Assembly: GCA_963741115.1 (NCBI GenBank)
Contig: CAVUGR010000008.1
Coordinates: forward strand, 45,251-109,250
Reading direction: 5' to 3'
DNA from: an uncultured Alphaproteobacteria bacterium
GTDB lineage: Bacteria; Pseudomonadota; Alphaproteobacteria; Rhizobiales; Xanthobacteraceae
DNA length: 64,000 bases
Shown: piece after piece, positions 9,813 to 35,888 of the stretch
Position numbering within the stretch: position 1 is the stretch's first letter
Layout of the letters: each line of letters starts with the position of its first letter
Notes under the pieces: generated by a model
Database searches by the model: none
The model's input: only the letters and a program-made list of their open reading frames with translations
Told to the model about the DNA's origin: nothing
Program-made: the position numbers and the translations under genes

Positions 9813-10407
9813 GCCGCAAATCCGTACTTGGATGGCCGGTGCGAATAGGCTTTGAAGCCGTAGACGCTGACGTCCTCACATTGTTGCCCAAGCGGAGCCG
9901 TTTGCCCACGCAGAGCCTTGGCCGCCTTGCAAAGGATCATGTCCTTTTGGACTCGTCCGATCACACCCGCTTTGTGCAGGCATCTGGCCTTCACGGCCAT
10001 CAACTCGGCCGATGATGTGTCCCTGATGGGGAAGATCAGATCGAGGTCGAGGTTGCGGTTCATGACGCCAGGACAAGTCGCGGGCCGCGAATCAGTTCCC
10101 GTGCAGACGCTCCCGAATCAAAAAATCCCTCTTTCAAGAGGTAACCCGCGCCGCACGGCATTACAAAATCTTGCAGCCGGCTAGTTGAATATTGCGAAGA
10201 ATCCATATTCACGGGAACAATTCTTAGCCGAGATGCTTTGTCCAATGACGGGATCACATATATGCCGCATTTGCCGTGCTCAAACGCGCGAACAGATCAA
10301 CTGTCGCCATCGTTTCCGACCAGCACTGGAATAATCCGTGCTTGGGGTCCTCAAAAACGATGCTGCCGATGATGTCGGCGCCGACAAAATTTCCCCGAAG
10401 GAAGCTG

Positions 10408-10887: not shown

Positions 10888-10903
10888 TTCGCTGTGCCCG
10901 CGC

Positions 10904-11923
10904 CTACGGCTGCGTTTCCAGTTTGGCGCCGGTTTCTTTCACCACCCGCTGCCATTTCGCCGAATCGACCGCGACATAGGTCTTGAAATCCTCCGGCGAT
11001 CGGCTGGTGTTCGGCAGCATCCCGCCCTGCAGCATGAGCTCCCGCACTTTCGAGTCGGCCATGGCCTGCACCAAAGCGGCATGCAGCTTGGCGACGATCG
11101 GCTTTGGCGTTCCGGCTACCGCGAACAATCCCTGCCATGATGAACTGACGCTTTCCGGATAACCGAGTTCCAGCACGGTCGGGACATCAGGCAGCAAAGC
11201 CACGCGCTCGCGCGTGCTTACGGCGTATGCCTTCAACGCGCCGCTCTTTACATGCGCGACCGCCGCGGAGACGGTCACGAACATCACGTCGACATGGCCG
11301 CCGATGAGATCGGCGATCGCCGGGCCGGCGCCGCCTTTGTAGGGGACCTGCGTCATCTCCAGACCGGCGGTGCGGCGAAACGATTCCATCTCCAGCGTAT
11401 TGAGCGTGCTGACACCCGAAGACGCGTAATTGACCTTGCCGGGCCGCGCCTTCACGTAGGCGATCATTTCCTTGAGCGAGTTGGGCGGAAAATTCTTGCT
11501 GGCGATCAAGATGCCGGGCGTTTCCGAGGCCAGCGACACCGGCTCGAAATCGCGTTCCGGCACCACCGTCAGTTCGGGAAAGAAGTGCGGGTTGATCGAG
11601 ACGGTGCCGACATTGCCGAAAAACAAAGTGTAGCCGTCGGGCGCCGCCCGCGCGGCCACTTCCATGCCGACATTGCCGGCGGCGCCCGGCCGATTGTCGA
11701 TCACGATCTGCTGACCGAGCGCTTGCGCGAAACCAGCCTGCAGCAGCCGGATTGCGAGGTCGGTCGCGCCGGCCGGCGCGAATGGCACGATGATGTGGAT
11801 AGGCCGCACCGGATAGTCGGCGACGTCGTCGGCGGCCACGGCTCTGCCGGCGCCGAGGTTCGCTACGAGGCAAAGCAGCGCGCCACATATGCGTGACAGC
11901 GTCATCGCTGCCCTCATCGTCAC
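10904..11923 (-). CDS. tripartite tricarboxylate transporter substrate-binding protein (TctC / Bug family)
   Basis: Signal peptide, then a Bug-family sequence throughout. GTG start at 11923. Confidence 0.85.
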   Translation of the reverse strand: MTMRAAMTLSRICGALLCLVANLGAGRAVAADDVADYPVRPIHIIVPFAPAGATDLAIRLLQAGFAQALGQQIVIDNRPGAAGNVGMEVAARAAPDGYTLFFGNVGTVSINPHFFPELTVVPERDFEPVSLASETPGILIASKNFPPNSLKEMIAYVKARPGKVNYASSGVSTLNTLEMESFRRTAGLEMTQVPYKGGAGPAIADLIGGHVDVMFVTVSAAVAHVKSGALKAYAVSTRERVALLPDVPTVLELGYPESVSSSWQGLFAVAGTPKPIVAKLHAALVQAMADSKVRELMLQGGMLPNTSRSPEDFKTYVAVDSAKWQRVVKETGAKLETQP

Positions 11924-14252: not shown

Positions 14253-15011
14253 TCAGCTTGCGGCGGCGGCGGCTTGGCCTATCCCGAACACCTGCGCCGC
14301 GAATTGCGGATAGACCTCGGCGAGCTGCGGCGCCACCGTCTCGCGCAGGAGCTTGAGCGTGGCGGGTGAGGGCGCCGGCGTTTCCGGCACGCTGGCCGGG
14401 AGCTCGAATTCGAAACCGGTGTTCTCGATCACTTCTGCGACCGTGTGGCCGGGATGCACGCTGGCGAGCGTGAAGCGCCCGTTGGCGAAGGAGAACAGGC
14501 AGCGGTTGGTCACCAGCGCGATCGGGCCACCCGGGCGATAGACGTTTTGTTCGCTGGCGCCCGGCGCGCTGATGAAATCGACGCGCGGCACCAGCGTGCG
14601 GCGCGAATGCTCGACCCGGAACAAGATCACCTTCGGCACCACGTAATAGAGATAGGTTGAGCCGAAGGAGCCGGGGAAGCGCACCTTCGGATGCCCGTGC
14701 TCGCCGATCTCCACCAGGTTGACGTTGCCCTGGCCGTCGATCTGCCCGCCCGAGAGGAAGAACACGTCGATGCGGCCTTGCCCGGCGCAATCGAACAATT
14801 CGCGCGCGCCGTCGGTGAAGAAATTGTGTTTGCGGCTTTGCAGCAGCGACACATAGGGGCGGCCGCCTCCGCGCTCGCGCGCCAGCAGCGCGGCGGTCGC
14901 CGGAATCGGCGAGGCATTGCCGACCGCGACGTGGCGCACCTCGCCGATCAGCCGCGCGATCACGTCGGCGAGCAGCTCCTCGTCGCGGAAATTACGCGGC
15001 GCGCCGTTCAT
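14253..15011 (-). CDS. CoA-transferase subunit B (glutaconate CoA-transferase GctB-like)
   Basis: Start ATG at 15011 (MNGAPRNF...) overlaps the subunit A stop by 20 nt. The ORF extends to 15098 only as an upstream non-coding frame. Confidence 0.75.
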   Translation of the reverse strand: MNGAPRNFRDEELLADVIARLIGEVRHVAVGNASPIPATAALLARERGGGRPYVSLLQSRKHNFFTDGARELFDCAGQGRIDVFFLSGGQIDGQGNVNLVEIGEHGHPKVRFPGSFGSTYLYYVVPKVILFRVEHSRRTLVPRVDFISAPGASEQNVYRPGGPIALVTNRCLFSFANGRFTLASVHPGHTVAEVIENTGFEFELPASVPETPAPSPATLKLLRETVAPQLAEVYPQFAAQVFGIGQAAAAAS

Positions 15012-15822
15012 ACACATACCGCTCGAGATATTCTGCAAAACCCTCCGCCGTCGCCGCCATGCGCGCATAGAGCGCGAGATGCTCGGCGTCGGCGGCATAG
15101 TGATCCGGCAAGCCCAGCGGCCAGGCGCCGCGCTCAGTCACCGCGATGCTGTCGACATAGAAGCCGGGCAGCGTGCCGGCCGCCATCACCGGATCGTCGA
15201 GCAGATTGCCGTCGTAAATCTTTTCCACGGTCGCGATGGTTTTCTCCGCCGCATGCGCCATGGTCGCCAATTCTCGCTGCCGGCCGATCCAGACATTGCC
15301 GAAGCGATCGGCCATGGCTGCATGGATCAGCGCTACGTCCGGCTTGATCGCGGGCAGCAGCACGATCGGATCGTCATTGCCGAACGGTGAGTCGACCACC
15401 TTCCAATCGTCGCGATATTTCAAGATGTCCGACCCGATCAGCCCGCGCAGCGGCATGAACGGCACGCCTTTTTCTGCCGCCTGTAGTGCAGCATGCAGCG
15501 CCGGGCAGGTCGCGTCCTTCATGGTAATCGCGCCGGCGAGAATGGCGGCGGTGAAACGCGGCGCCGGGCCGAATTCGCCGAGGCTCACGGCCGACGTTTC
15601 CAGCGTTTCGACGCAACCGGCGCCGATCAGCAGGTCCGCCTGCAGACTGGAGGTCGGCAGCGCCACCAGATGCAGCCGCTTGACGGAGCGCCGGATCAGC
15701 GCGCGCGTGGCCGCCATCGGCACGCCCGAAACCTCGCGCGGAACGACCAGCAGGCAGCCGTCGGCAACGGGCGCGAGCGCATCGTCGATGGATTTCGCCA
15801 GTTGAAACATGCCTGCCCGCAT
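14992..15822 (-). CDS. CoA-transferase subunit A (GctA-like)
   Basis: 276-aa intact ORF. First gene of the minus-strand operon A-B-oxidoreductase-oxidoreductase-TctC. Confidence 0.75.
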   Translation of the reverse strand: MRAGMFQLAKSIDDALAPVADGCLLVVPREVSGVPMAATRALIRRSVKRLHLVALPTSSLQADLLIGAGCVETLETSAVSLGEFGPAPRFTAAILAGAITMKDATCPALHAALQAAEKGVPFMPLRGLIGSDILKYRDDWKVVDSPFGNDDPIVLLPAIKPDVALIHAAMADRFGNVWIGRQRELATMAHAAEKTIATVEKIYDGNLLDDPVMAAGTLPGFYVDSIAVTERGAWPLGLPDHYAADAEHLALYARMAATAEGFAEYLERYVYERRAA

Positions 15823-15905
15823 GGCTGCGCGTCTTTCGCGTCTTGGAGCGTCTTTTTCCCATTCTTATGCTTGCAAGGTCCACTCAATTTTGCGACTTGG
15901 TCGCG

Positions 15906-16823
15906 ATGGGAACCACGCTTCAAGACAAGCTGAAGGCCGGGCGCTTCGTCATCACCGCGGAGGTAACGCCGCCGGTGTCGGCCGACCGCGGCGAATTGCT
16001 CGCCAAGGCGCTGCCGCTCAAGGGCCTCGCCGACGCCGTCAACATCACGGATGGCGCCGGCGCGCGTCCGCATCTCGGCGCGGTGACCGCGGCGGCGCTG
16101 CTGGTCGATTCCGGCATCGAGCCGGTACTTCAGCTCACCTGCCGCGACCGCAACCGCATCGCCCTGCAGAGCGACCTGCTCAGCGCCGCGGCCTCGGGCA
16201 TCCGCAATTTGCTGGTGTTGCGCGGCGACGACCCGAGCGCGGGCGACCAGCCCGACGCCAAGGCGGTGTTCGATCTCGATCCGCGCCAGCTTCTGGAAAC
16301 CGCGCGCCGGCTGCGCGATACCGGCGAACTTCCGTCCGGCCGCAAGGTCAGCGGCCGAACCGATTTCTTCCTGGGCAGCGCCGACAACCCGCTCGATCCG
16401 CAGCCCGGCTGGGAGCCGAAGGCGCTCGCCGCCAAGGTCGCGGCCGGCGCGCAATTCGTGCAGACCCAGTTCTGCATGGATGCCGGCGTCGTGCGCCGCT
16501 ATCTGGCGCGGCTCGAGGAGGCGGGGTTAGCCGGCAAGCTCAAGTTCCTGATCGGCATCGTGCCGCTGCGCTCGGCCAAGTCGGCGCGCTGGATCAAGGA
16601 GAAGCTGTTCGGCGCCATTATTCCCGACGCGATTATCGAGCGCATGGAGTGCAGCCCCGATCCGGCGGCCGAGGGCCGCCGCATCTGCATCGACATCGTG
16701 CGCGAACTTTCCGACGTTCCGAATGTCGCCGGCGTCCACATCATGGCGCCGGGCAACGACGCCGCGGTGCCCGACATCATCGTCGCGGCGCGCGATAGCG
16801 TCGCAAGGCCGGCGGCGGTTTAA
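15906..16823 (+). CDS. methylenetetrahydrofolate reductase (MetF/MTHFR)-like protein
   Basis: RFVITAEVTPP, QLTCRDRNR and QFVQTQFCMD motifs. ATG at 15906; the alternative upstream start at 15843 adds 21 aa. Divergent from the CoA-transferase operon. Confidence 0.7.
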   Translation: MGTTLQDKLKAGRFVITAEVTPPVSADRGELLAKALPLKGLADAVNITDGAGARPHLGAVTAAALLVDSGIEPVLQLTCRDRNRIALQSDLLSAAASGIRNLLVLRGDDPSAGDQPDAKAVFDLDPRQLLETARRLRDTGELPSGRKVSGRTDFFLGSADNPLDPQPGWEPKALAAKVAAGAQFVQTQFCMDAGVVRRYLARLEEAGLAGKLKFLIGIVPLRSAKSARWIKEKLFGAIIPDAIIERMECSPDPAAEGRRICIDIVRELSDVPNVAGVHIMAPGNDAAVPDIIVAARDSVARPAAV

Positions 16824-19836: not shown

Positions 19837-20954
19837 ATGCGCACTGCACCAATCATCGGGATGACGCTCGCGGCGATCATTGTGGCCGCAACCGCTATCG
19901 CTGTGGCGGTTCCCGCCGCCGGGCAGGAAAAGGTTTGGAAGCACGGCCTGATCAACGCCAAGGCCGATGCCGGCATCTTCATGATGGTGGGCAGACGCGA
20001 CTTCGCCGCCAAGCAGGGCCTCAAGCTCGAACTGCTGGAGTTCAAGGACGACCAGCTCGGCCTCAAGGCGCTGATCGCCGGCGAACTGGACAGCTTCGAA
20101 GGCGGCCCGCAGGGCGTATTCGCCGCCGATGCCAAAGGCGGCGACGCGAAAATCCTCGGCTGCCACTGGATCGTGGTGCCGCACGGCATCTACGCCAAGG
20201 ACAACATCACCAGTGTCGAGCAGCTCAAGGGCAAGTCGATCGCGGTGTCGGCGCCGAACTCGATGCCCAATATGTTGGCAATCGAGGCACTGGCGAAATA
20301 CGGAATTTCCGACAAGGACGTCAGCCTAGCGGCGGTTGGCGGCGACCGCGAGCGCTACCAGGCGCTGGTCGGCGGCGTGGTCGAAGCCGCGGTGGTGTCG
20401 AACGAATATGAACCGATCTCGCCGAAGAATATCCATCTGCTGGTCGCCGGCCGCGACGCGGTGCCGAATTTCCTGCGCGTCTGCATCGTCTCCAGCGCCA
20501 AGAAACTGGCCGAGCGCGGCGATGACGCGGTGAAGGTTTCTTGCCGCCGAAATGAACGCGCTGCGTTTCGCGCTCGCCAACAAGGACGCCACCGTCGCGC
20601 TGACGCGCGAGATCAGCCAGGCCAAGCCGGACGATCCGCGCCCCGGCTTCGTGTTCGACGACGCGGTGGCGCACAAGGCGGTCGATCCGGACGCTGCCGA
20701 TCCCGGCCGCGAAGATCATGTGGATCCAGGAGCAGATGGTGAAGTCCGGCAAGCTCGACAAGCCGCTCGACCTCAAGGTCGTCACCGCGCCGGAATATCG
20801 CGAACGGGCGTTCAAGAAAGTCGGCATTGATACCATTTGTCATTCCGGGACGGTCCGAAGGGCGGACGCGAATCCAGATCATGACGCCGGCCTGGATTCG
20901 GGTTCCGGGCCTCGCTCGCGTCCTGGAATGACGATGGAGATTTTGAATGGGTGA
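19837..20954 (+). pseudogene. ABC transporter substrate-binding protein, NMT1/THI5-like (NitT/TauT family), at least 2 frameshifts; 3' end uncertain (20830-20954)
   Basis: GGAGGAGG Shine-Dalgarno before the ATG at 19837, then a signal peptide. The frame breaks near 20540 and 20715. Confidence 0.65.
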
Positions 20955-21726
20955 AGTAACTTTCCTCGACGTCTCCAAGCGCTTCTCGTTGCGCGTGGAC
21001 GGCGAGCTGCATCACGTGCAGGCGCTCGACCGCGTCAGCTTCACGGTGCACGATGGCGAGATCGTCGCGCTGATCGGCCCGTCCGGCTGCGGCAAGACCA
21101 CGGCGTTGCGCGTGGCCATGGGGCTGGACCCTCGACCAGCACCGGCCGCGTCACCGTCGACGGCCGCGAGGTGCACGGCTGCGGCCACGACCGCGGCATG
21201 GTGTTCCAGCACGCCGAACTGCTGCCCTGGCTCTCCGCCTTGCAGCAATGTGATGTTCGGCCTCGAGATGAAAGGCATGCGCGGCGCCGAGCTGCACGAC
21301 ACGGCGGAGAAATATCTCGAACTGGTCGGTCTGACCGATTCGCAGAACCGGCGCCCGCATCAGCTCTCCGGCGGCATGAAGCCAGCGCGTCGGCATTGCC
21401 CGTGCGCTCGCCATCGATCCGTCCGTGCTGCTGATGGACGAGCCGTTCGGCGCGCTCGACGCGCAGACGCGCGAGTCGATGCAGGCCGAGTTGCTCGACA
21501 TCCACGCCCGCACCGGAAGACCATTTTGTTCGTCACCCACGACCTCGACGAGGCGGTGCTGATTGCCGACCGCATCGTGATCATGCGGGAGGGCCGCGTC
21601 GCCGACATCATGACGGTGCCGGCCAAGCGGCCGCGCGATCTCGCGCGGTGCGCGGCACGCCGGAATTCGCCGAGACCCGCTACAAGGTCTGGCGCGCGCT
21701 GCACGACGAGCAGACGGTTCACTAAT
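20947..21726 (+). pseudogene. ABC transporter ATP-binding protein (NitT/TauT family), at least 5 frameshifts
   Basis: Walker A (GPSGCGKTT), LSGGM signature, Walker B (LLMDEPF) and H-loop are recovered only by switching frame near 21125, 21250, 21385, 21515 and 21655. Confidence 0.75.
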
Positions 21727-22553
21727 GGTCGATATTTCCGATAACCAGATAAAGACCGCGCCGGCGGCCGAGCCGCGAAGAGCGCAAGCCGCTGCCGCGC
21801 TGGGTGATCACCTGCGCGTCGGTTGCGTGCCTGCTGATCTTCTGGGAAATCTTCGGCCGCGACATCAATCCGATGTTCGGCTCCTATCCGAGCGCCATTG
21901 CGGTGGCGTTCTGGGAGCTGCTGGTCAGCGGCCAATTGTGGAAGGCGCTCTACGACAGTCTGCGGCCGTTTTTGCTCGGCTATGCGCTCGCGATCGTGTT
22001 CGGCGTGCCGCTTGGGCTTCTCATCGGCGGCTTCCGTACGGCGGAAGCAGCGCTCGGCATCTACGTCACCGCCGGTTACGCCATGCCGCTGGTGGCGCTG
22101 GTGCCGCTGCTGATCCTGTGGCTGGGTCTGGGCTTTGCGGTCAAGGTCGCGGTGGTGTTCCTGATGGCGCTGTTCCCGATCACCATCAACACCTGGCTCG
22201 GCGTCGTCGCCGTGCCCAAGACGCTGATCGAGGTCGGCAAGTCGTTTGTCGCCCCCGATCTGGTGATCCTGCGCCGCATCGTGTTGCCGGCGACGCTGCC
22301 TTACATCATGGCCGGCGTTCGTCTGGCGGTCGGCCGCGCCGTGGTGGCGATGGTGATCGCGGAATTCTTCACCACCATTTCCGGGCTCGGCGCGGTGATC
22401 ATCAACTCGGCCAATAATTTCGACACCGCCACCATGTTCGTGCCGATCATTATCCTGATGGTGATGGCAATCGGCTTGAACAGCCTGATCGGTTTCGTCG
22501 AGCGCACCGTCGCGCCCTGGCAGGCGGAGATCGCGGGACGGGAGCGGGAGTAG
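21725..22553 (+). pseudogene. ABC transporter permease (NitT/TauT family), N-terminal frameshift near 21780
   Basis: The ATG at 21725 overlaps the ATPase stop. The frame of MVDISDNQIKT must shift to reach the intact permease body (RKPLPRWVITCASVA... to stop at 22553). Confidence 0.7.
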
Positions 22554-22560
22554 GTCGCTA

Positions 22561-22656
22561 CTGTCATGCCCGCGCAAGCGGGCATCCAGTACGCCGTGAG
22601 GTATCGGATTAAATTGAGACCTGCGTACTGGGTCCCCGCCTTCGCGGGGACGACAA
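22561..22656. repeat. REP-like palindromic intergenic element, family B (GTCATGCCCGCGCAAGCGGGCATCCAGTAC ... GTACTGGGTCCCCGCCTTCGCGGGGACGAC)
   Basis: Inverted-repeat arms. Related copies lie at 23701-23772, 30551-30682, 42756-42790 and 52271-52340. Confidence 0.6.
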
Positions 22657-23676
22657 TTACTCTGAGGCTAGGTTCGTCACCGCCGCGAACAAATCGCGGA
22701 CCTGCTTCTCCGAAATATTCCTGGTGATGAACACCACGCGGCTCTGGCGATTTTCGTCCGGCCAGGTTTCAAGTTCGACCGGCGGATGCGCGAGGTGCTG
22801 CACGAACTGCACCACCACCGGGCCTTTGCAGCCGTCCACCGCGAGGAAGCCTTTGACGCGCAGCAGGTCTCCCCCGCGCAGCGCCATCAGCGTGTCCATG
22901 GCGCGCGCGAACACCTTCCACGATACCGGCGCCGCCTCGTTCAAAACAAAGCTTGAAATGCCGTCGCTGTGCGCGGCCTCCGCGACGAAGGCGTTGCGCT
23001 GAATTACCACCGGCTCGGTCAGCCGTGTCGGGTCAAGTTCGCCGTTCACCGCCCGCAGGATTTCCGCGCCGGAGTTGAGCGCGCGCAGTTGCGCGGTTAG
23101 CGCGTCGGCCGTCTTTTGCCCGGCAATATCGGTCTTGGTCACCACCAGCCGGTCGGCCAGGATTGCCTGCTTGCGCGCTTCGGCCGACCAGGAAAGCGTG
23201 TCGAGCCCGGTCGCCGCATCGACCACCGTGACCACCACGTCCACATGAAACGCCGCCCCCAACGCGCGGTCGGTGGCAAACGTCTGTAAAATCGGGCTGG
23301 GATCGGCTAGCCCTGAGGTCTCGATCACGACGCGGCGGAAGTCGGGGATTTCGCCGCGCTCGCGCTCGACTACCATTCGGCGCAAGGCGTGTTGCAGGTC
23401 GCTGCGGGTGATGCAGCACAGGCAGCCGTTGCCCAAGAGCACCGTCTCGTCAGCGCCTCCACGCACCAGAGCATCGTCGATGCCGGTTGCGCCGAATTCA
23501 TTGATCACCACCGCAGTGCCGCGGCCCGCCTCGGTGCCGAGAAATGTTTGTAGCAGCGTAGTCTTGCCGGCGCCCAGGAAGCCCGTCACCACCGTGACCG
23601 GCACGCGAGCCCCGCGTTCGCGCTTGAGCCTGCGCCCGAACAGGCCGGCGGCGGGTGAGGGGAAAATCTCGTTCAT
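22657..23676 (-). CDS. CobW/G3E-family GTPase (COG0523 metallochaperone-like)
   Basis: P-loop GFLGAGKTTLL, metal-binding GCLCC motif, and the typical C-terminal domain. Intact 339-aa ORF. Confidence 0.85.
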   Translation of the reverse strand: MNEIFPSPAAGLFGRRLKRERGARVPVTVVTGFLGAGKTTLLQTFLGTEAGRGTAVVINEFGATGIDDALVRGGADETVLLGNGCLCCITRSDLQHALRRMVVERERGEIPDFRRVVIETSGLADPSPILQTFATDRALGAAFHVDVVVTVVDAATGLDTLSWSAEARKQAILADRLVVTKTDIAGQKTADALTAQLRALNSGAEILRAVNGELDPTRLTEPVVIQRNAFVAEAAHSDGISSFVLNEAAPVSWKVFARAMDTLMALRGGDLLRVKGFLAVDGCKGPVVVQFVQHLAHPPVELETWPDENRQSRVVFITRNISEKQVRDLFAAVTNLASE

Positions 23677-23700
23677 CTCATACCGTCATCGCCCGCGAAG

Positions 23701-23772
23701 GTGGGCGATCCAGTAAACACCGGACGTGCGGTATGGCCAAGCGCTGGATGCCCGCCTTCGCGGGCATGACAG
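23701..23772. repeat. REP-like element, family B
   Basis: CCAGTA...GGATGCCCGCCTTCGCGGGCATGACAG arms shared with the other family-B copies. Confidence 0.55.
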
Positions 23773-23775
23773 CCT

Positions 23776-25017
23776 CTAAAAATCCATCTCCAGCACATAC
23801 AGCCCGCCGCTGAAACGATCGACGCAATAGACGATCTCGCGCTCGTCGACGTAGACGTCGTTGATCTGCACCGCGCCGACCGGCGTGCCGTTCGGGGCCG
23901 GCGGCACGAAGGCGGCCACTTCCTTCGGCTGGTAGGCGTTGGAAATGTCGTAGGCGCGCAAGCCCCCGTTGAAGAAGGTGCCGAGCACGATCTGGTCGGA
24001 CTTCCAGGCGGTCGGCACCGGCGTGTTCTCGTGGATATTGTGCGCGCCGAAACGCCCGCCGCGGTTGGCATAGGCATCGACCGGCGGCATCGGACAGGTG
24101 GCGATCGGCACCACATGGGTTTCGTCGCGCGCGTCGAGAATCCAGATCAGCTTCGGCCAGTCCTTGGCGGCGTTCTCGGTCGACTCGTCGGTCACCAGCA
24201 TCAGGCCGCGATCGAACAGCGGCACCGCCGTGTGCATGAAGCCGGTATAGGGCGGCGAATTGGTCCAGTGCGAGATAACTTTTGGACTCGCTTTATCCTT
24301 GATGTCCATTACGAACATGCCGCCGTCGATGTAGCAGAGATAAAGCCGGTCCGGCCGGTCCGGATAGACGTTGGTGTTGTGCGCGCGATAGCCCTTGTCG
24401 AGCGGATGGCGCGGCGGCGGCTTGACGTTGTCGGTGACGGATGTGCCAGGCATCCACCAGCGGCCGACCTCGACCGGCTTGGACGGATTGCGCACGTCGA
24501 TGCAGCGGTAGAACTGGTCGTCCTGCGGATGGCTCGGCTTGAAGTCGGGCGCGCCCGAGGCCATGTGCACGTATTCGCCGTCGCAGAACCACAACTGGTG
24601 CACGCCGCGCGAATTGGCGCCCGAGCAGTCGAAGAACGAAATCGAGCGCGGCTTTTCCGGCACCGAGCAGTCGAACAGTTCGAGCCCGGCCGGCTGCTGG
24701 CCGACCTTCTGCGTCTGATAGGCGACCGCCAGGATGTCGCCGGTCATCTCCAGCGAGTTCGAGCGCATATGCGCCTGCGGCAGGGCGGTCTGCACCACCA
24801 CTTTCGGATTGCGCGGATCGGACACGTCGACGCCGGTAAAATTCTTCGGCGCGCTCTCGTGCGCCAGCCAGAGGATGCGGCGCCCGTCTTTGGCGATCTG
24901 CACCGCGATGCCTTCGCCCATGCCGCCGAAGCCGCCGAGATCGTTCTGCGCGAGCAGCTTGAAATTCCAGGTGGTGGGCTCGCCGGACTGGCTGAGCGGA
25001 TTGGTGGCGGTGGACAT
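23776..25017 (-). CDS. hypothetical cytoplasmic beta-propeller protein (LVIVD-repeat-like)
   Basis: 413-aa intact ORF with no signal peptide. It has repeated Gly-rich beta-strand motifs ending in hydrophobic-x-hydrophobic-D (e.g. DILAVAY, LYLCYIDGGMFVMDI, GGLYVLEMDF). I recognise no catalytic family. It sits between the CobW GTPase and the ABC importer in the same operon. Confidence 0.6.
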   Translation of the reverse strand: MSTATNPLSQSGEPTTWNFKLLAQNDLGGFGGMGEGIAVQIAKDGRRILWLAHESAPKNFTGVDVSDPRNPKVVVQTALPQAHMRSNSLEMTGDILAVAYQTQKVGQQPAGLELFDCSVPEKPRSISFFDCSGANSRGVHQLWFCDGEYVHMASGAPDFKPSHPQDDQFYRCIDVRNPSKPVEVGRWWMPGTSVTDNVKPPPRHPLDKGYRAHNTNVYPDRPDRLYLCYIDGGMFVMDIKDKASPKVISHWTNSPPYTGFMHTAVPLFDRGLMLVTDESTENAAKDWPKLIWILDARDETHVVPIATCPMPPVDAYANRGGRFGAHNIHENTPVPTAWKSDQIVLGTFFNGGLRAYDISNAYQPKEVAAFVPPAPNGTPVGAVQINDVYVDEREIVYCVDRFSGGLYVLEMDF

Positions 25018-25096
25018 TCGCGTCTCCGATGTTGGCGTTGGTCGCGTGGAAAGGCCGGCGCCTAGGCGCCGGCCTAGCGTGGATGTAGGATGAAGT

Positions 25097-26086
25097 TTAA
25101 GCCCCGGCCTGCTTGAAGAATTCAGTGCGCAGCACTTTATCCCAATCCGGGATCGCCTTGATCTTGTTCTCCCTGAGCAGGATTTCGGCCTGCGCCTGCA
25201 TGTAGGGTTTGATGTCGGCCGGCCAGCCCGGCTGCACTTCGACGCGCGACAGCGCCTTGGTGAAGGTGTCCTTCGACATGGTGTAGCCCTTCGAGGTGTA
25301 GAACGTGTAGATCACGTCCGCCACCTTGCCGGGGTTGGACTTGAAGTCCTTCGCCACTTCGATCCAGGCCTTGAGATAGGCGACCACGGTCTGCGGGCTC
25401 TTCTCGACGAAGTCGGGCGTCGCCGCCATGAACACCGGCAGTCTGTCGAAGGTATCGAACTCCGAGATCGTGTTCGCCAGACCGTCGGCTTCCGCGATGG
25501 CGTTGTAGGGCTCGACATTGCACATGGCATCGACGGTCTTGGCGGCCATGGCGGCCACCATGTCGTCGACGTTCATGCGGACTTCCTGATAGTCGCCCTT
25601 CTTCAGGCCGGCTTTGGTTGCGATCTGGTCGACGAAAATGTTGCCGGTCGACGAGCCGGTCTGGTTGGCGACCTTCAAACCTTTAAGCTGCTCGACCTTG
25701 GTGAGTCCCAGATCCTTGCGCGCCATCACGCGCGCGGTCTTGCCGACATATTCGATCATGGCGATGGCGACCATGCCGCCTTTGTCGTGGCCGAGCGCGA
25801 GCGATGGGCCGGCATAGGTGCCCATGTCGACCTGGCGCGCCACCATCTGCTGCATGGTGAGATTGCCGGACGGCACCGCGAATTCCTCGAACTTGACGCC
25901 GTTCTTCTCAAGCAGGCCGGAGCGCAGCAGATAATAAGTCGGCATGCCCCACATGTTGGTCTGGTAGCCCTGGCGCACTGTCTCCAGCGCGAAGGCCGGC
26001 CGCATGCCCAGGCCCGCCGCCAGTACGCCGGCGCCGGTTGCCGCCAGCGCGTGCCGGCGGGTAATTCCCTTTTGCAGAATGGTCAT
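25097..26086 (-). CDS. ABC transporter substrate-binding protein (NMT1/THI5-like, NitT/TauT family), Tat-type signal
   Basis: RRHALAATGAGVLAAGLG signal. Intact 329-aa ORF. Confidence 0.8.
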   Translation of the reverse strand: MTILQKGITRRHALAATGAGVLAAGLGMRPAFALETVRQGYQTNMWGMPTYYLLRSGLLEKNGVKFEEFAVPSGNLTMQQMVARQVDMGTYAGPSLALGHDKGGMVAIAMIEYVGKTARVMARKDLGLTKVEQLKGLKVANQTGSSTGNIFVDQIATKAGLKKGDYQEVRMNVDDMVAAMAAKTVDAMCNVEPYNAIAEADGLANTISEFDTFDRLPVFMAATPDFVEKSPQTVVAYLKAWIEVAKDFKSNPGKVADVIYTFYTSKGYTMSKDTFTKALSRVEVQPGWPADIKPYMQAQAEILLRENKIKAIPDWDKVLRTEFFKQAGA

Positions 26087-26125
26087 CGCGTTATCCTCCC
26101 TTTCGAATTGGCTGTCAGTTGACCG

Positions 26126-26899
26126 CTAATTTGCCGTTTCTTCTACTTTCACATCATGACCCAGAAGTTGCATCAGCTCCTTCTGGCATTCGACGAATTC
26201 AACGCTGAGCGGATCGCGCGGGCGCGGCAACGCTATCTTGACCAGCGCTTTGACCGTGCCGGGATGCGGGCTCATCACCACCACCCGGTCGGCCAGATAC
26301 ACCGCTTCCGCCACATTGTGCGTCACGTAGATCACCGTCTTGCGGGTAGCTTTCCACACATCGGCGAGCAACCGCTGCATGTCGTCGCGCGTCATCGCGT
26401 CCAATGCGGCAAACGGTTCGTCCATCAAGAGTACCGAGGGATTGTACGCCAGCGCGCGGGCGATGGCGACCCGTTGCTGCATGCCGCCGGATAAATGGTG
26501 CGGGTAGGAATTGATGAACTTCTCCAGTTTCACCAGGCGCAATTGCTCGCGCGCGATTCTGTCGCGTTCCTGCTTGGGCACGCCCTTCATTTCCAGCCCG
26601 AATTCGACGTTGCCGAGCGCCGTCCGCCAGGGAAACAACTGGGCGAAGTCCTGGAACACCACGCCGCGGTCCATGCCGTGCCCGGTCACGGCCTTGCCGC
26701 CGATGCGGATTTCGCCGGACACCGGCGCAAGGAATCCGGCGATGATATTGAGCAGCGTGGACTTGCCGCAGCCGGACGGCCCGACGATGCATAAAAACTC
26801 CGAGGCATCGATGTTGAGGCTGACGTTCTTGACGCCCGGCACCTTGCCGCCGGGCGTGTCGTAGGTCAGCGTCACGTCGCGTATTTCGATTGGAACCAT
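26126..26899 (-). CDS. ABC transporter ATP-binding protein (NitT/TauT family)
   Basis: ATG at 26899 (MVPIEIRDV...). Walker A GPSGCGKST, LSGGMQQR, LLMDEPF. The ORF-track extension to 27385 is upstream out-of-context sequence. Confidence 0.85.
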   Translation of the reverse strand: MVPIEIRDVTLTYDTPGGKVPGVKNVSLNIDASEFLCIVGPSGCGKSTLLNIIAGFLAPVSGEIRIGGKAVTGHGMDRGVVFQDFAQLFPWRTALGNVEFGLEMKGVPKQERDRIAREQLRLVKLEKFINSYPHHLSGGMQQRVAIARALAYNPSVLLMDEPFAALDAMTRDDMQRLLADVWKATRKTVIYVTHNVAEAVYLADRVVVMSPHPGTVKALVKIALPRPRDPLSVEFVECQKELMQLLGHDVKVEETAN

Positions 26900-26901
26900 T
26901 G

Positions 26902-27723
26902 TTAGCCTTTTGCTTTTTCTTTTTTCGCCGGAGCCCAGCGCGGAGGGCGCTTCTCGAGGAACGCCGCCAGACCTTCGGCGGCTTCCGCGCTCTGACGCTT
27001 GGCGGAATGTGCTTCGATCAGCCCGGTGAAGGCCGCGTCGTCGAGATGGGCCCAGGCCGAGCGCAGCGCACATAATTTCGTTTGCGCGACGGCGTCCGGC
27101 CCGCTGGCCAGCAGTTGACCGACAATGCGCTCGCCGGCGGCTTCCAGTTCGGTAAGCGGCACCACCTCGTGCACCAGGCCGATGCGGCGCGCCTCCGCCG
27201 CATCGAAGCGCTCGCCAGTGAGCGCATAGCGGCGTACCTGGCGCAGGCCGATGGCGTCGTTGAGCTGCGGGATAATGATGGTGCCGGCGACGCCGACGCG
27301 CACTTCGGCGATCGAGAAGGCGGCGCTGTCGGCGGCGATCACGATGTCGCACGCAGAGATGATGCCGGTGCCGCCACCGAAGCAATAGCCCTGCACCAGC
27401 GCTACCGTCGGAACCGGCAGCAGATTGAGCCGCTGCACCGCTTCCGCGGTCATGCGCGAGGCGCGCAAATTTTCCGCAGGCGAGGACTGCCGCACTGAAT
27501 TAAGCCAGCCGACATCGGCCCCGGCCTGGAAATTCTTGCCGTTGCCGGTAATGACGACCGCGCGCAACGACATCGCGCCGAGCGCGTCGTAAGTTTTCAG
27601 CAAAGCCGCGATCAGCTCACCATTATAGGCGTTATAGACTTCCGGGCGGTTGAGGATGACGCGCGCCACGCCACGTTCGTCGACGCTCCACAAGACCGGG
27701 CCGGTGGAAGACGCCTGGGTCAT
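26902..27723 (-). CDS. enoyl-CoA hydratase/isomerase (crotonase) family protein
   Basis: Crotonase-fold motifs (VITGNGKNFQAGADV; GYCFGGG). The stop abuts the ATPase start. It sits between the permease and ATPase genes of the transporter. Confidence 0.85.
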   Translation of the reverse strand: MTQASSTGPVLWSVDERGVARVILNRPEVYNAYNGELIAALLKTYDALGAMSLRAVVITGNGKNFQAGADVGWLNSVRQSSPAENLRASRMTAEAVQRLNLLPVPTVALVQGYCFGGGTGIISACDIVIAADSAAFSIAEVRVGVAGTIIIPQLNDAIGLRQVRRYALTGERFDAAEARRIGLVHEVVPLTELEAAGERIVGQLLASGPDAVAQTKLCALRSAWAHLDDAAFTGLIEAHSAKRQSAEAAEGLAAFLEKRPPRWAPAKKEKAKG

Positions 27724-27726
27724 CGC

Positions 27727-28533
27727 TTAGCCCTTGGCCGCGCGCGACATGCCCCAGCGCTGCACGGTGGCACGCTCGATCGACCCGAACACCAGGCGCT
27801 CGAACAGATAGCCGATGGCGCCGATGACGATGAGGGCCGCCAGCATGACGTCGGTATTGAGGAATTCCTTGGCGTCGAAGATCACCCAGCCCAACCCCCA
27901 ATCGGAGGCCGCAATCATCTCGGCGCCGACCACCGCGATCCAGGCGCGCAGGAACGATTGCCGCATGCCGGTGATGATGAAGGGCGAGGCGCCGGGAATG
28001 ATCACCTTCCAGAACAGGCTGTGCTCGTCGGCGCCCATGCAGCCTGCCGCGCGCAGCCAGAGCGGATTGACCGAGCGCACGCCCGACCAGGTGTTGAACA
28101 CCATCGGAAAGGTCGCGGCATAGAACACGATCAGGATCGTGGTCAGGTTGCCGATGCCGAACCAGAGCATGAACAGCGGCACCAGCGCGAAGGAAGGGAT
28201 CGGCATCAGCGCGCTGATCAGCGGCAGGCAGAAATGCTCGATTCGCTTGAAGCGCGCCATCAGGATGCCGAGCGGGATGCCGACCACTACGGCGAGGCTG
28301 AAGCCGAACATCACCCGGTACATGGTGAAAGCGGCGTGCTCGATCATGGTGCCGTCGGCAAGGGTGGCGAAGAGCGCGGAGAGGATGGCCGAGATCCGCG
28401 GCAGCAGCGCCGGGGCAAAATAGCCGCTGCGCGCCAGCGCCTCGTAGCAGGCGGCGGCAGCGGCAAGGGTGACGGCGGCGCGCACAAAGGAGCGCGCGCG
28501 CATTCCGTTTTCGGTCATTACAACTGCGGTCAT
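27727..28533 (-). CDS. ABC transporter permease (NitT/TauT family), subunit 2
   Basis: ATG at 28533 overlaps the upstream permease stop (ATGA). EAA loop and TM helices are present. Confidence 0.8.
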   Translation of the reverse strand: MTAVVMTENGMRARSFVRAAVTLAAAAACYEALARSGYFAPALLPRISAILSALFATLADGTMIEHAAFTMYRVMFGFSLAVVVGIPLGILMARFKRIEHFCLPLISALMPIPSFALVPLFMLWFGIGNLTTILIVFYAATFPMVFNTWSGVRSVNPLWLRAAGCMGADEHSLFWKVIIPGASPFIITGMRQSFLRAWIAVVGAEMIAASDWGLGWVIFDAKEFLNTDVMLAALIVIGAIGYLFERLVFGSIERATVQRWGMSRAAKG

Positions 28534-29360
28534 GCGCGCACCATGCCCCAGCGCACGACGGTGTAGTCCTCGATCTTCTGGAACACGAGTTTTTCCAGGA
28601 TCAGGCCGATGATGGCAATCACCGCGATGCCGGCCATCATGACGTCGGTGTTGAGGAACTTGCGCGCGCCGAAGATCATCCAGCCCAGCCCCCACGGCAC
28701 GGCGGCCAGCATCTCGACCGCCACCAGGATGCGCCAGGCCTGCGCCAGGCCGAGCCGCATGCCGGTGAGGATATAGGGCAGGGCGCCGGGCAGGATGACG
28801 TAGCGGAACAGACGTTTGTCGTCGGCGCCCATGGATTGCGCCGAGCGCACCCAGATTTCCTTCACCGCTTTGACGCCGGTCCAGCTGTTGAAGATGATCG
28901 GGAACGACGACACGAAGCCGACCAGCAGCACGGACGAGAAATTGCCCAGGCCGAACCAGAGCAGGAACAGCGGCGCGTAAGCGAGGCCGGGGATCGGCGC
29001 GCAAATGCTGACCAGCGGCAGGAAGATGTCCTCGGCCCGGCGCGAACGCGCCATCAGCACGCCGATGATCACGCCGAACACCGCGGCAAGCGTAAAGCCG
29101 GTCAGCAGACGGATCACCGTCTCGATGGCGTGATGCGGCAGGATGCCGTTGACGGTCAGCCGCACGAAGGCCGACACGACTTCCTCGAGCGTCGGAAATA
29201 GCCGGCGTGGGAACACGCCCATCCAGGCGACGATCTCCCAGATGGTACCGACCACCACGAACGGGAAGATGTTGCGCGCGATGAGGCGCCAGCGCTCGTT
29301 ACCGCTTTCGGGGCGGTCGGGCGCATCCGTTACGGCAATGGTGGTGACCGCATCCTGCAT
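28530..29360 (-). CDS. ABC transporter permease (NitT/TauT family), subunit 1
   Basis: 276-aa intact ORF, paralogous to the downstream permease. This family usually uses one permease as a homodimer, so two different permeases suggest a heterodimeric channel. Confidence 0.8.
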   Translation of the reverse strand: MQDAVTTIAVTDAPDRPESGNERWRLIARNIFPFVVVGTIWEIVAWMGVFPRRLFPTLEEVVSAFVRLTVNGILPHHAIETVIRLLTGFTLAAVFGVIIGVLMARSRRAEDIFLPLVSICAPIPGLAYAPLFLLWFGLGNFSSVLLVGFVSSFPIIFNSWTGVKAVKEIWVRSAQSMGADDKRLFRYVILPGALPYILTGMRLGLAQAWRILVAVEMLAAVPWGLGWMIFGARKFLNTDVMMAGIAVIAIIGLILEKLVFQKIEDYTVVRWGMVRA

Positions 29361-29593
29361 GGCTGCCGGCGCTCCTCCCTGAACGTCTTGGTTCGCGGGC
29401 CTCTTGCGGGCCCTTCAGCGGTTGTTGCCGCCACGGGGCGCAGAATAATGCGCTTTGAACGGTAACCACAAGCATGCGTGCTGCTGCATTCGCGAGCACC
29501 GGCGCGCCCTCTGGCGATTTGGCGGCAGACCGGCTAAAGCCCCGCTCAAGACCGCGAATGCCGCGGCAAAAATTCCAACGGGAGAGTTTCGTG

Positions 29594-30547
29594 ATGTCGA
29601 ACAATGCACAAAAGATCGGCTGGATCGGAGTCGGCCGCATGGGGACGCCGATGGTCGAACGGCTCCTGAAGGCCGGTCACGACGTGACGATCTGGAACCG
29701 CACCCGCGCCAAGGCCGAGCCGCTGGCCGCCAAGGGCGGCAAGATCGTCGACAAGCCGGTCGATCTGGCCGGTTGCGACGTGGTGTTCGCCATCGTTTCC
29801 ACCGGCAAGGACGTCGAGGAAGTGGTCTTCGGCAAGGACGGTCTGCTCAGCGGCGCCAAGAAACCGAAAATGCTGGTCGACTGCTCGTCGATCTCGGTCG
29901 AGGAATCCGCCGAGATCCGCAAGCGCCTGCAAGAAAAGGGCGTGAGCTTTCTGGCCGCGCCCGTGTCCGGCAATGCCAAGGTCATCAAGGCCGGCAAGCT
30001 GTCATCGGTGGTGTCAGGCCCCGAAGCCGACGCCAAGATCGCCATGCCGCTGATCGAAGTGTTCGCGCCGCAGGGCGTCTCCTACGTGGGCGACGGGCGA
30101 ACTCGCGCGCATCTGCAAGATCGCGCACAACGTCATGCTCGGCGTGGTGATCGAGAACCTGATCGAGATCACGCTGCTCGCCAACAAGATGGGCGTGCCG
30201 CGCCACGCCTTCCTCGCCTTCATGAACAACGGCGTGATGGGCTCGATGTTCACCAAGTACAAGACGCCGGCGCTGGTCAATCTCGACTGGACCACGACGT
30301 TCACGCCGGAGCTGTTGCGCAAGGATCTCGATCTGGGTCTCGCGCTCGGCCGCGAATGGGACGTGCCGATGCCGGTGACGGCGGCGACGCGCGAGGTGCT
30401 GCAAGGCCATTTCGGCGCCGCCATGCTGCAGAAGAATCCGGAGGAATACTCCAGAAGGATTTCGCCGCGCTGGCCGAAACCATGGCGCTCGCCGCCGGCA
30501 TGAAACTCACGCCGGAAAACAAGAACGTCGGGACGGGGCTGGAGTAG
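29594..30547 (+). pseudogene. NAD(P)-dependent oxidoreductase, 3-hydroxyisobutyrate dehydrogenase (HIBADH) family, about 3 frameshifts
   Basis: GGGAGAG Shine-Dalgarno before the ATG at 29594. N-terminal GWIGVGRMG Rossmann fold. The frame is lost near 30095, recovered as ORF 30135-30503, and lost again near 30455 (EEY|LQKDFAAL; one missing C). Confidence 0.75.
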
Positions 30548-30550
30548 CTG

Positions 30551-30682
30551 TTGTCGTCCCCGCGAAGGCGGGGCCCCAGTAATCACCGGCAGCGTTTTGA
30601 TCGATAGGCTGTCGAGTACTGGATGCCCGCCGGAGCCTGTCATCGGGCCGCGCTTCGCGCGGACCCGTTGGCGGGCATGACG
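30551..30682. repeat. compound REP-like element (family B arms, two nested palindromes)
   Basis: GTCGTCCCCGCGAAGGCGGGGCCCCAGTA ... TACTGGATGCCCGCC ... GGCGGGCATGAC. Confidence 0.55.
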
Positions 30683-30907: not shown

Positions 30908-31660
30908 ATGGCCTTCAAGCTCTACAACGCGCCGCAATCGACCTGCAGCCAGCGCGTGCGCTTCGTGCTCAACGCCAAGAAACTGCCGTTCGACGAGGTG
31001 AAGCTCAATCTGCTGGAAGGCGACCAGCTCAAGCCCGACTACCTCAAGCTCAATCCGAACGGCGTGGTGCCGACGCTCGACCATGACGGCGACATCGTCA
31101 TCGACTCCACCGTGATCACCGAATATCTCGACGAAGTCTCGCCGGCCGACAGCTTCACCCCGGAATCGGCGGTCGAGCGCGCCCGCATGCGCGCGCTGAT
31201 GCATTTCATCGACGAGATGCCGGCCGCCGCCGTGCGCGTGCCGACCTTCAACCTCGCCTTTTTGCCGAGCTTCCAGAAGATGAGCCGCGAGGCCTTCGTG
31301 GCGATGGCGGAGTCCAAGCCGCTGCGCAAGCGAATTCATGATGACCATGGGGCAGACCGGTTTCCCCAAAGCCGAGATGGACGCCGCGCTCGCGCGCCTG
31401 CGCCGGACCTATGAGCGCATGGACGCGCAGATCGAGAAAAGCGGCGGACCGTGGCTGCTGGGCAAGAAGATCACGCTCGCCGACGTGGCGGTGATGCCGG
31501 CGCTGGTGCGCATGGACGATCTCGGCATGAGCGCGCAGTGGCAGGATCTGCCGCGCATCGTGACCTGGTTCGACAATATCCGCGCGCATCCGGCGTTCAA
31601 GCCGACTTATTATCCGGGCTCGCTGCTGAGCGAGCGCTTCCCGCATTTGCGGGAGAAGAG
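30908..31660 (+). pseudogene. glutathione S-transferase family protein, frameshift near 31340; 3' end uncertain
   Basis: N-terminal thioredoxin-like GST domain from the ATG at 30908. One inserted C near 31340 (PLRK|EFMMTMG). The continuation frame has no stop before the next gene, so one more shift near the C-terminus is likely. Confidence 0.65.
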
Positions 31661-34586: not shown

Positions 34587-35888
34587 TCAATACCTGTTCG
34601 CGATCGGCAATTCCTCGGCCGGGAACAGCGAGATCAGGCGGCAGCCTTTGTCGGTGACCACGACCTCTTCCTCGATGCGCGCGGCGGAAAAGCCGTCGGT
34701 CGCCGGGCAATAGGTCTCGATCGCGAACACCATGCCTTCCACGATTTCGGTCGGGTGATCCATCGACACCACGCGCGAGATGATCGGCCGCTCGTGCAGG
34801 TTCAGGCCGAGGCCGTGCGCGAATTGCAGGCCGAAGGCCGTCATCTCGTCGGGAAAGCCGAACTCCTCCGCCTTCGGAAACACCTCGCAGATATGCGCGG
34901 TGCAGGCGCCGGGCTTGATGCGCTCGATCGCGTTGTCGAGCCATTCGCGCGCCTTCCTGTAGCAATCGTGCTGCGCCGGCGTGGCGCGGCCGACATTGAA
35001 GGTGCGGTAGTAGCAGGTGCGATAGCCCATGAAGCTTGCAGAATGTCGAAGAACGCCTGGTCGCCCGGGCCGGATCATGCGGTCGGTGAAGTTGTGCGGA
35101 TGCGGACTGCAGCGCTCGCCGGAGATGGCGTTGACCGCCTCCACGTCGTCGGAACCGTGCGTGTAGAGGAACTTGTTGACCTCGGCGACGATGTCGTTCT
35201 CGCGCACGCCCGGGCGCAGCATGTTGTTCACCAGGTCATAGGCGCCGTCCACCATGGCGGCGGCGCGGTTGAGCAGCGCGATTTCGTCGGATGACTTCAC
35301 CTCGCGTGCGCTCAGCATGACCTGCTGGCCGTCCTTGATCTTGAGCCCGGCTTTTTCGAGCTCGAACATCATCGGCGGCTCGATGATGTCGACGCCGATC
35401 GGCATCTTGGCGACGCCGGCGGCTTTCAGGATCGAGGCCATCTCCTCGGCATGGCGCTTCATCAGGCCGAAGGCGGGATCGACGGTGCCGCGCAACCCGA
35501 CCAGGCCGGCCTTGCAGTTTTCCGGCTTGAGCCAGGGCGAGTACAGCCGGTGATGCACCGCGGCCGAGCCGAAGTCCCACAGGATCGGATCGCCGCCGCG
35601 CATCAGCAGCGCCCAGCGCGACAGCTTGTCGCGCGCCCATTCGCCGATCTTGGTCGAGGTGACGTAACGGATGTTGTTGTCGTCGAACAGCAGCAGCGCG
35701 CCGAGGTCGGAGTTCTCGAGCGCCGCTTGCGCGCGGGCGAGCCGGTAGCGGTGCATGCGCCGGTAATCGACGCGCTCCTCGAAATCGACGCCCATGGTGC
35801 CGAGCACCGGCAGATGGCGGCCCCAGTTGTAGCGCGGGTTGATGTCCTCGGCGCGGATTTGCAGCGGGTCGCGCGTTCTCTCGTCCAT
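34587..35888 (-). CDS. M24 family metallopeptidase-fold protein with creatinase-type N-terminal domain (DddP-like)
   Basis: AGGGAGA Shine-Dalgarno before the ATG at 35888. The N-terminal LLLFDDNNIRYVTST motif region resembles DddP/creatinase. C-terminal pita-bread domain. Intact 433-aa frame. Confidence 0.7.
   Translation of the reverse strand: MDERTRDPLQIRAEDINPRYNWGRHLPVLGTMGVDFEERVDYRRMHRYRLARAQAALENSDLGALLLFDDNNIRYVTSTKIGEWARDKLSRWALLMRGGDPILWDFGSAAVHHRLYSPWLKPENCKAGLVGLRGTVDPAFGLMKRHAEEMASILKAAGVAKMPIGVDIIEPPMMFELEKAGLKIKDGQQVMLSAREVKSSDEIALLNRAAAMVDGAYDLVNNMLRPGVRENDIVAEVNKFLYTHGSDDVEAVNAISGERCSPHPHNFTDRMIRPGRPGVLRHSASFMGYRTCYYRTFNVGRATPAQHDCYRKAREWLDNAIERIKPGACTAHICEVFPKAEEFGFPDEMTAFGLQFAHGLGLNLHERPIISRVVSMDHPTEIVEGMVFAIETYCPATDGFSAARIEEEVVVTDKGCRLISLFPAEELPIANRY

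Follow-up and report, generated by a model that had tools for sequence, protein, structure and literature searches.

The 64,000-nucleotide stretch of DNA analysed here (the window; contig CAVUGR010000008.1 of an uncultured member of the Xanthobacteraceae, positions 45,251 to 109,250) carries a block of seven genes on the minus strand, between 22657 and 29360, whose functional core is a two-gene module encoding a beta-propeller protein and a GTPase of the COG0523 (CobW/G3E) family. On balance, the propeller is best read as a cytoplasmic metal-dependent hydrolase that would receive its metal from a COG0523 chaperone of its own and would work within a catabolic uptake cluster, a reading held with somewhat more confidence than doubt. 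An initial annotation of this DNA had put the propeller forward as a candidate new metalloenzyme and COG0523 client, which stands as a fair reading because a conserved set of His and Glu residues matches the metal site of the only relative with a solved structure; the pairing of the two genes is likewise conserved. The two components of the module are:

23776..25017, minus strand: predicted cytoplasmic seven-bladed LVIVD-type beta-propeller, 413 aa, homologue of Sb-PTE with a borderline LVIVD Pfam match only
22657..23676, minus strand: COG0523 (CobW/G3E) GTPase, 339 aa, PF02492 and PF07683, with a GCLCC motif

Fold, family and candidate metal site of the propeller

Structural modelling of the 23776–25017 protein, which had been suggested as a check, yields a propeller of seven four-stranded blades (AlphaFold, 40-sequence alignment; pLDDT 93.5, pTM 0.91). 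When the model was compared with the PDB by Foldseek, the first match was Sb-PTE of Sphingobium sp. TCM1 (5hrm; E 7e-15, TM 0.68–0.70), with generic WD40 propellers following at about 1e-9. The same relative is recovered from sequence, both by an hmmsearch of the PDB with the family profile (Sb-PTE sequence, E 2.2e-19) and by a single-sequence phmmer search (E 4e-4). At 16–18% identity, Sb-PTE is the sole specific relative of the propeller with a solved structure, and the titles of its structure entry and paper describe a seven-bladed propeller with a binuclear manganese centre. The Pfam LVIVD model (PF08309) matches the propeller at 20.4 bits against a cut-off of 20.2, no individual repeat passing alone; many homologues carry PF08309 matches, and some are listed at NCBI as 'LVIVD repeat-containing protein'. 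Judged by these profile matches, the propeller belongs to the LVIVD/Sb-PTE propeller superfamily, with more than 5600 homologues (2668 matching proteins in a library of 50%-identity representatives), and the earlier statement that it had no nameable family does not hold. Its closest homologues, 75–90% identical and labelled 'hypothetical' or 'LVIVD repeat', come from Pseudolabrys and other Xanthobacteraceae metagenome-assembled genomes. MtoX, considered as an NCBIfam name for the protein, was discarded as a meaningless match (E 0.006).

The translation of the propeller has no signal peptide. Six homologues that are 77–80% identical to it (P0100, P0104, P0105, P0109, P0110 and P0113) begin with a basic, Lys/Ala-rich N-terminal tail of about 45 aa, for example MKRAKKKVAAKKTAKKTAKNKKK, which is missing from the protein of 23776–25017. 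Longer homologues were also considered as possible propeller–CobW fusions; this was rejected, the extra length being a frameshift artefact or a Lys/Ala-rich tail.

The metal ligands of Sb-PTE, which we take to be the bridging Glu-201, His-258, His-317, His-389, Glu-407 and His-475 (reportedly the numbering of Mabanglo et al., 2016), provide the reference for a candidate site. All six numbers fall on a His or Glu in the 5ioj sequence, which supports this numbering. The corresponding positions in the propeller are as follows:

M84: opposite the bridging Glu-201 (HMMER alignment), not conserved
H140: approximately His-258 (HMMER alignment, one residue off)
H213: approximately His-317 (equivalent position after the preceding blade motif)
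H262: His-389 (HMMER alignment)
E278: Glu-407 (HMMER alignment)
H329: His-475 (HMMER alignment), with H326 three residues before it

Five of the six Sb-PTE ligand positions carry a conserved His or Glu in the propeller family, the match of H213 to His-317 having been mapped by hand since the segment profile is confounded by the blade repeats. H140, H213, H262, E278 and H326 are each kept in 117–119 of 119 CobW-linked homologues (113–119 with H329 counted) and in 33–38 of 43 distant full-length representatives, where H329 is lowest at 24 of 43. Conservation among the 119 CobW-linked homologues is as strong for E35, R85, N87, R322, N327, E330 and D387, of which E35, R85, N87 and D387 are candidates for lining the propeller channel. 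In the model, each candidate residue either opens the innermost strand of a blade or closes the second one. The putative ligands would thus gather on a single face of the central channel, where propeller active sites usually lie.

The COG0523 GTPase and its linkage to the propeller

The GTPase carries the motifs GFLGAGKTT (Walker A, GxxGxGK[ST]), GCLCC (the metal-binding CxCC motif), ETSG and TKTD, in keeping with a COG0523 G-domain, and matches PF02492 at 157 bits (cut-off 20.7) and the CobW_C domain PF07683 at 73.6 bits (cut-off 22); its nearest solved structure is YjiA of E. coli (E 1e-48). It reaches no NCBIfam cut-off, scoring 135.7 bits of the 332 set for CobW (TIGR02475), 112 of 600 for ZigA and 210 of 361 for PRK11537, and is a COG0523 protein of an unnamed subfamily. 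Propeller-linked GTPases at large retain the CxCC motif in 127 of 132 cases and Walker A in 129.

Gene neighbourhoods were compared in two sets of loci. The first comprises 80 loci from species-representative genomes and two from look-up, all of them Xanthobacteraceae, with propellers 76–91% identical to the 23776–25017 protein; its counts refer to loci with enough flanking DNA (71 or 69). The second, from a metagenome scan, comprises 80 loci with propellers 57–68% identical to that protein, 65 of them with enough downstream DNA. The propeller gene is followed by a cobW gene in the same orientation at 68 of 71 Xanthobacteraceae loci, with an overlap of 4 nt in 12, and at 50 of 65 metagenome loci cobW comes immediately downstream. 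The linked propeller–COG0523 pairs recovered number about 120 and span 34–91% identity, which supports a conserved pair whose members are probably often translationally coupled.

The rest of the block is less constant. In the Xanthobacteraceae, the pair is preceded by a NitT/TauT-type ABC importer, its substrate-binding protein (SBP) being found upstream at 61 of 69 loci (~88%) and its two permeases at 57 and 58 of 69, respectively. By contrast, the crotonase-fold enoyl-CoA hydratase/isomerase family protein (ECH) encoded within the transporter genes of the window is present at only 16 of 69. At loci that lack it, either nothing lies between the permease 2 and ATPase genes or the slot is taken by other genes, for example TctC, Amidohydro_2 or an opposite-strand gene of the isocitrate dehydrogenase family, and at two loci (L044 and L045) the ECH gene stands directly before propeller–cobW with no transporter. 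The importer is missing from all 80 metagenome loci except L102, and outside the Xanthobacteraceae TctC-type receptors are the usual neighbours of the pair. The proposed check for a conserved CobW–propeller–NitT/TauT–ECH arrangement therefore bears out the CobW–propeller part, whereas the importer, which recurs in L085 and L102, is not conserved with the pair beyond the clade. In Xanthobacteraceae, the importer often accompanies the pair but can be replaced, and the ECH is an accessory whose inclusion in the unit is not sustained.

Recurrent neighbours at the metagenome loci are TctC receptors, HIBADH-like dehydrogenases, Amidohydro_2 proteins, SDRs and MTHFR-like genes. Transport genes aside, the pair's most frequent neighbour is the HIBADH-like family, which occurs at 70 loci, including 13 of the distant metagenome set. 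At L085, where the propeller is 37% identical and cobW is missing, the propeller gene lies in an NMT1-type ABC operon between two amidohydrolase genes; L102 is a second, independent case of NMT1-type ABC genes next to a propeller gene. At L084 and L088, with propellers 34–37% identical and GTPases 43–45% identical to that of 22657–23676, a gene of the AtzD family is divergent from an SDR–propeller–cobW series. Amidase, malonyl-CoA decarboxylase and CoA-transferase genes stand beside this AtzD/barbiturase–SDR–propeller–CobW module at L084, surroundings that hint at oxidative pyrimidine or barbiturate-type catabolism; the propeller of L088 lacks most of the putative metal ligands. One locus (L003) has tandem propeller paralogues (8001–9239 and 10404–11597; 91% and 70% identical to the 23776–25017 protein) before a single cobW.

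Polysaccharide deacetylases form a further association. At 17 metagenome propeller loci without cobW, a gene for a polysaccharide deacetylase resembling the allantoinase PuuE comes next (for example L120 7169–8065 and L098 7188–8054), and on Rhizobium and Shinella plasmids (L170 and L171) a related COG0523 gene follows a polysaccharide deacetylase gene and one for a 110-aa hypothetical protein, with no propeller. The propeller, COG0523 and polysaccharide deacetylase families thus co-occur pairwise. Since related COG0523 genes pair with polysaccharide deacetylases, the GTPase clade seems to serve several kinds of hydrolase.

Proposed function, alternatives and known systems

Gene linkage and structure, homology and the conservation of the ligands are observed here, whereas metal binding, transfer from chaperone to client, hydrolase chemistry and a link between importer and substrate are deductions. 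In the mechanism favoured here, the propeller would bear a His4/Glu metal site on one face of its channel (H140, H213, H262, E278 and H326/H329). The GTPase would bind metal at GCLCC and hand it, in a GTP-dependent manner, to the apo-propeller, as Nha3 does for iron nitrile hydratase and CobW for the cobalt chelatase. A metal-activated water in the propeller would then most likely hydrolyse a small organic acid at an ester, lactone or (cyclic) amide bond. Uptake of the substrate in this lineage would fall to the upstream SBP, exported by Tat, and to the NitT/TauT importer with its two permeases, and products may be handled downstream by the ECH, the divergent beta-hydroxyacid dehydrogenase and a nearby CoA-transferase, all of them optional. 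A man-made phosphotriester, as for Sb-PTE, is an unlikely substrate. A broader version, offered tentatively and short of an even chance, is that these propellers form a large, unrecognised family of cytoplasmic seven-bladed metallohydrolases with a natural substrate, whose active site is assembled only by a dedicated COG0523 GTPase and from which the xenobiotic phosphotriesterase Sb-PTE was recruited. In that case, they would rank after the cobaltochelatase and iron nitrile hydratase as the third class of bacterial COG0523 client open to experiment.

Several observations weigh against the proposed hydrolase–chaperone pair. No close homologue of the propeller is characterised, and the clustering of the candidate ligands is deduced from homology and strand positions rather than from coordinates. 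The site may be mononuclear or otherwise built, because the bridging Glu-201 of Sb-PTE corresponds to the non-conserved M84. One distant CobW-linked homologue (P0190) lacks H140, H262, E278, H326 and H329. Conversely, many propeller genes stand without cobW: those of P0126, P0137, P0148 and P0204, one on a Rahnella plasmid and 15 of the 65 at metagenome loci. Distant members of this kind are either secreted or encoded amid sugar, oxidoreductase or amidohydrolase genes. No single substrate emerges from the gene neighbourhoods across the family, which point in two directions, one towards cyclic amides (AtzD/barbiturase, amidase, PuuE-like deacetylase, Amidohydro_1/3, creatininase and M24 creatinase-like genes) and the other towards the metabolism of hydroxy acids and CoA (HIBADH-like dehydrogenase, CoA-transferase, ECH and TctC). 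Finally, importer linkage within the Xanthobacteraceae is indistinguishable from inherited synteny.

That the propeller is not an enzyme, assisting the GTPase instead as a metal-binding protein or adaptor, either as a cytoplasmic counterpart of the zinc chaperone AztD or as a WD40-like scaffold to another client, appears improbable. Precedents exist in AztD, a beta-propeller zinc chaperone whose family is often encoded beside CobW genes (PMC6689063), and in COG0523 subgroup 5, whose clustering with 'WD40' genes in Bradyrhizobiaceae has already been seen in a Zur/ZnuABC context (Haas et al., 2009; PMC2770081), and the retention of cobW in P0190 despite replacement of most putative ligands fits such a role. 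The subgroup 5 'WD40'/AztD–ZnuABC module also resembles the present one in combining a CobW-family gene, a beta-propeller and an ABC transporter in related bacteria (PMC2770081, PMC6689063). That module, however, is a Zur-regulated zinc uptake system in which the COG0523 gene precedes the WD40 gene, whereas here the propeller gene precedes cobW, no ZnuABC genes occur in the cluster, and a search for a Zur box in the 64-kb window found none. AztD itself is periplasmic and eight-bladed, unlike the cytoplasmic, seven-bladed, Sb-PTE-like propeller, which has no ZnuA beside it; the PDB profile search, taken to E 1, and the best 50 Foldseek matches contain no AztD. The sole specific homologue of the propeller, moreover, is a hydrolase, and the surroundings are catabolic (importer, dehydrogenases and amidohydrolases).

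The metalloenzyme might instead acquire its metal unaided, the GTPase being a general metal-homeostasis factor or serving another enzyme such as the PuuE-like deacetylase or an amidohydrolase. The deacetylase-linked COG0523 genes of the Rhizobiaceae plasmids, which have no propeller, the 17 loci with a PuuE-like gene in place of cobW, and the many propeller homologues with no cobW nearby are in keeping with this possibility. It is nevertheless given little weight, as the propeller is the only constant neighbour of this cobW across three tiers of identity, the 4-nt overlaps of the two genes suggest coupled translation, and no further metal hydrolase is conserved in the seven-gene block. A different division, in which the importer (with or without the ECH) and propeller–CobW are separate units adjacent only through synteny inherited within the Xanthobacteraceae, is unlikely too, though it deserves serious consideration. 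The importer is missing from 79 of 80 metagenome loci and from 8 of 69 Xanthobacteraceae loci, a stable hairpin parts the SBP and propeller genes, and unrelated genes occupy insertion slots inside the transporter block. Set against this division are the independent adjacency of NMT1-type ABC genes to propellers in L085 and L102 and the arrangement in the window, where all seven genes share one strand and short spacers with no predicted promoter or terminator between the units.

The proposed hydrolase–chaperone pair has counterparts among known systems. Systems in which a maturation GTPase is encoded next to a catabolic metalloenzyme are already known: Nha3/P47K is likewise a CxCC COG0523 GTPase encoded beside the metalloenzyme it presumably loads, the iron-type nitrile hydratase (PMC11672702). 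That client has an alpha/beta fold and Cys ligands, whereas the propeller presents a His/Glu set. A 2024 review gives known clients for just two bacterial COG0523 proteins, CobW and Nha3 (PMC11672702). In the literature searched, no link between an LVIVD propeller and COG0523 was found, and both the client fold and the propeller–COG0523 pairing appear undescribed. Sb-PTE (5HRM/5IOJ) shares with the propeller its seven blades, LVIVD-type blade motifs and profile homology, and five of its six ligand positions have a conserved His or Glu in the propeller family; it differs in being about 100–170 residues longer and in its bridging Glu-201, which is not conserved here. Sb-PTE is exported, and we know of no chaperone gene associated with it. 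The six-bladed propeller lactonases (PON1, SGL, Rpa3624 and XylC) also activate water with a metal at the channel mouth and commonly neighbour dehydrogenase and sugar/acid uptake genes (PMC9843451), but they mostly bind Ca2+ through Asp, Glu and Asn and have no detectable homology to the propeller, so that the likeness is one of analogy; Rpa3624 of R. palustris, considered as a relative, was set aside as an unrelated six-bladed Ca2+ enzyme.

COG0523 GTPases occur in all life but form a metallochaperone family that is still poorly understood. A small, soluble and confidently modelled propeller with its own COG0523 gene offers a clean two-protein system for studying GTP-dependent metal transfer. 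If the proposed pairing is correct, it would place the fold of the enzyme Sb-PTE, which is of interest for bioremediation, in a natural biological context and would give an annotation to thousands of 'hypothetical' or 'LVIVD repeat' proteins, which abound in metagenomes and in soil Alphaproteobacteria.

Gene block, importer and flanking genes

The open reading frame listing and the Pfam and NCBIfam domain scans agree with the initial annotation on seven intact minus-strand genes at the positions it gave. Besides the propeller and GTPase genes, the block and its borders contain:

28530..29360, minus strand: ABC permease 1, NitT/TauT type, 276 aa (PF00528, BPD_transp_1, 77 bits)
27727..28533, minus strand: ABC permease 2, 268 aa (BPD_transp_1)
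26902..27723, minus strand: ECH, crotonase fold, 273 aa (PF00378, ECH_1)
26126..26899, minus strand: ABC ATPase, TauB/NtrCD-like, 257 aa (PF00005, ABC_tran, 115 bits)
25097..26086, minus strand: periplasmic SBP, NMT1/SsuA family, 329 aa (PF09084 and PF13379)
25052..25075, minus strand: 10-bp GC hairpin followed by UUUCC in the SBP–propeller spacer (fold -28.4 kcal/mol, z-score -2.85)
23677..23775, no strand assigned: REP/MITE-like palindromic element between propeller and cobW (-59 kcal/mol, z-score -5.9)
22556..22656, no strand assigned: second REP/MITE-like palindrome directly past the cobW stop codon (-56 kcal/mol, z-score -6.8)
29591..30541, plus strand: divergent beta-hydroxyacid (HIBADH-like) dehydrogenase with two frameshifts (tblastn: three segments, frames 2, 3, 2)

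The tight junctions noted earlier can be read directly in the sequence: the start of permease 2 overlaps the stop of permease 1 (ATGA, 28530–28533), 3 nt separate permease 2 from the ECH gene, and 2 nt separate the latter from the ATPase gene (TAAcaATG). The remaining spacers measure 39 nt (ATPase–SBP), 79 nt (SBP–propeller) and 99 nt (propeller–cobW). Promoter and terminator scans stayed at background level, with none predicted between the importer and propeller–cobW units, and an Rfam scan of the block returned no RNA family.

The palindromes had been placed on either side of the propeller gene as REP elements that could separate its transcript from that of cobW. They lie instead on either side of cobW, and the SBP–propeller spacer holds a different, simple GC hairpin, which was not called by the terminator scan and could possibly act as an attenuator or mRNA-stability element. 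The REP/MITE-like palindromes are about 100 nt long and made of GCCCGCGAAGGCGGGC-type hairpins (-56 to -59 kcal/mol), which also occur at 30559–30572. The copy between propeller and cobW is missing from relatives, in which the two genes abut or overlap, and comparison with these indicates a lineage-specific insertion. Because the genes overlap in relatives, the element is no evidence for separate units, although it could affect propeller–cobW co-transcription in this genome.

The importer is of the NitT/TauT type, with an NMT1/SsuA-type SBP, BPD_transp_1 and ABC_tran domains and best matches to Tau, Ssu and Nrt models. Permease 1 best matches the NCBIfam models TauC, SaoP and SsuC, each under its cut-off, the ATPase reaches 250 of the 357 bits required by the taurine ATPase model, and the SBP 120 of the 163.5 required by SsuA_fam (TIGR01728); the substrate of the importer is not assignable because every specific equivalog cut-off is missed. 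SaoPAX, the best NCBIfam name for the permeases, was rejected as belonging to an unrelated selenoprotein-linked system. The nearest solved structure to the SBP is SsuA of E. coli (E 5e-8), and its N-terminus (ITRRHALA...AFA) resembles a Tat (twin-arginine) signal. TauABC, SsuABC and NrtABCD share the permease, ATPase and SBP families but have a single permease gene, whereas here there are two paralogous ones and enzyme genes are inserted in the block. The two permeases, singled out earlier as unusual, are indeed real and conserved paralogues (49% identical), and amount to a minor oddity only.

The ECH belongs to the crotonase superfamily (ECH_1, 157.9 bits against a gathering score of 27) and reaches no equivalog, its best NCBIfam match being gamma-carboxygeranoyl-CoA hydratase (213 bits, cut-off 426). 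Classical enoyl-CoA hydratases have a GGGxE motif, at the position of which this protein carries FGGGTGIISACD, so that the first catalytic Glu is seemingly missing. Instead of a hydratase, the protein may be a crotonase of the isomerase, decarboxylase or hydrolase type.

As had been noted, the 6.7-kb block is itself free of frameshifts, whereas several genes on both flanks are frameshifted. Beside the divergent dehydrogenase gene, these include a GST gene (30908–31655, one frameshift) and a convergent second NitT/TauT system, in which the gene for an NMT1-type SBP (19930–20825) has two frameshifts and that for an ATPase (20947–21744) is also broken. Orthologues of these flanking genes are intact in related genomes and the shift sites show no obvious homopolymers; the frameshifts could be either real decay or assembly error. 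Genes for a CoA-transferase, an MTHFR-like protein and an M24 (creatinase/prolidase-like) protein, which recur near propeller–cobW in related genomes, are intact in the window at 14998–16808 and 34590–35888, 6–9 kb from the block.

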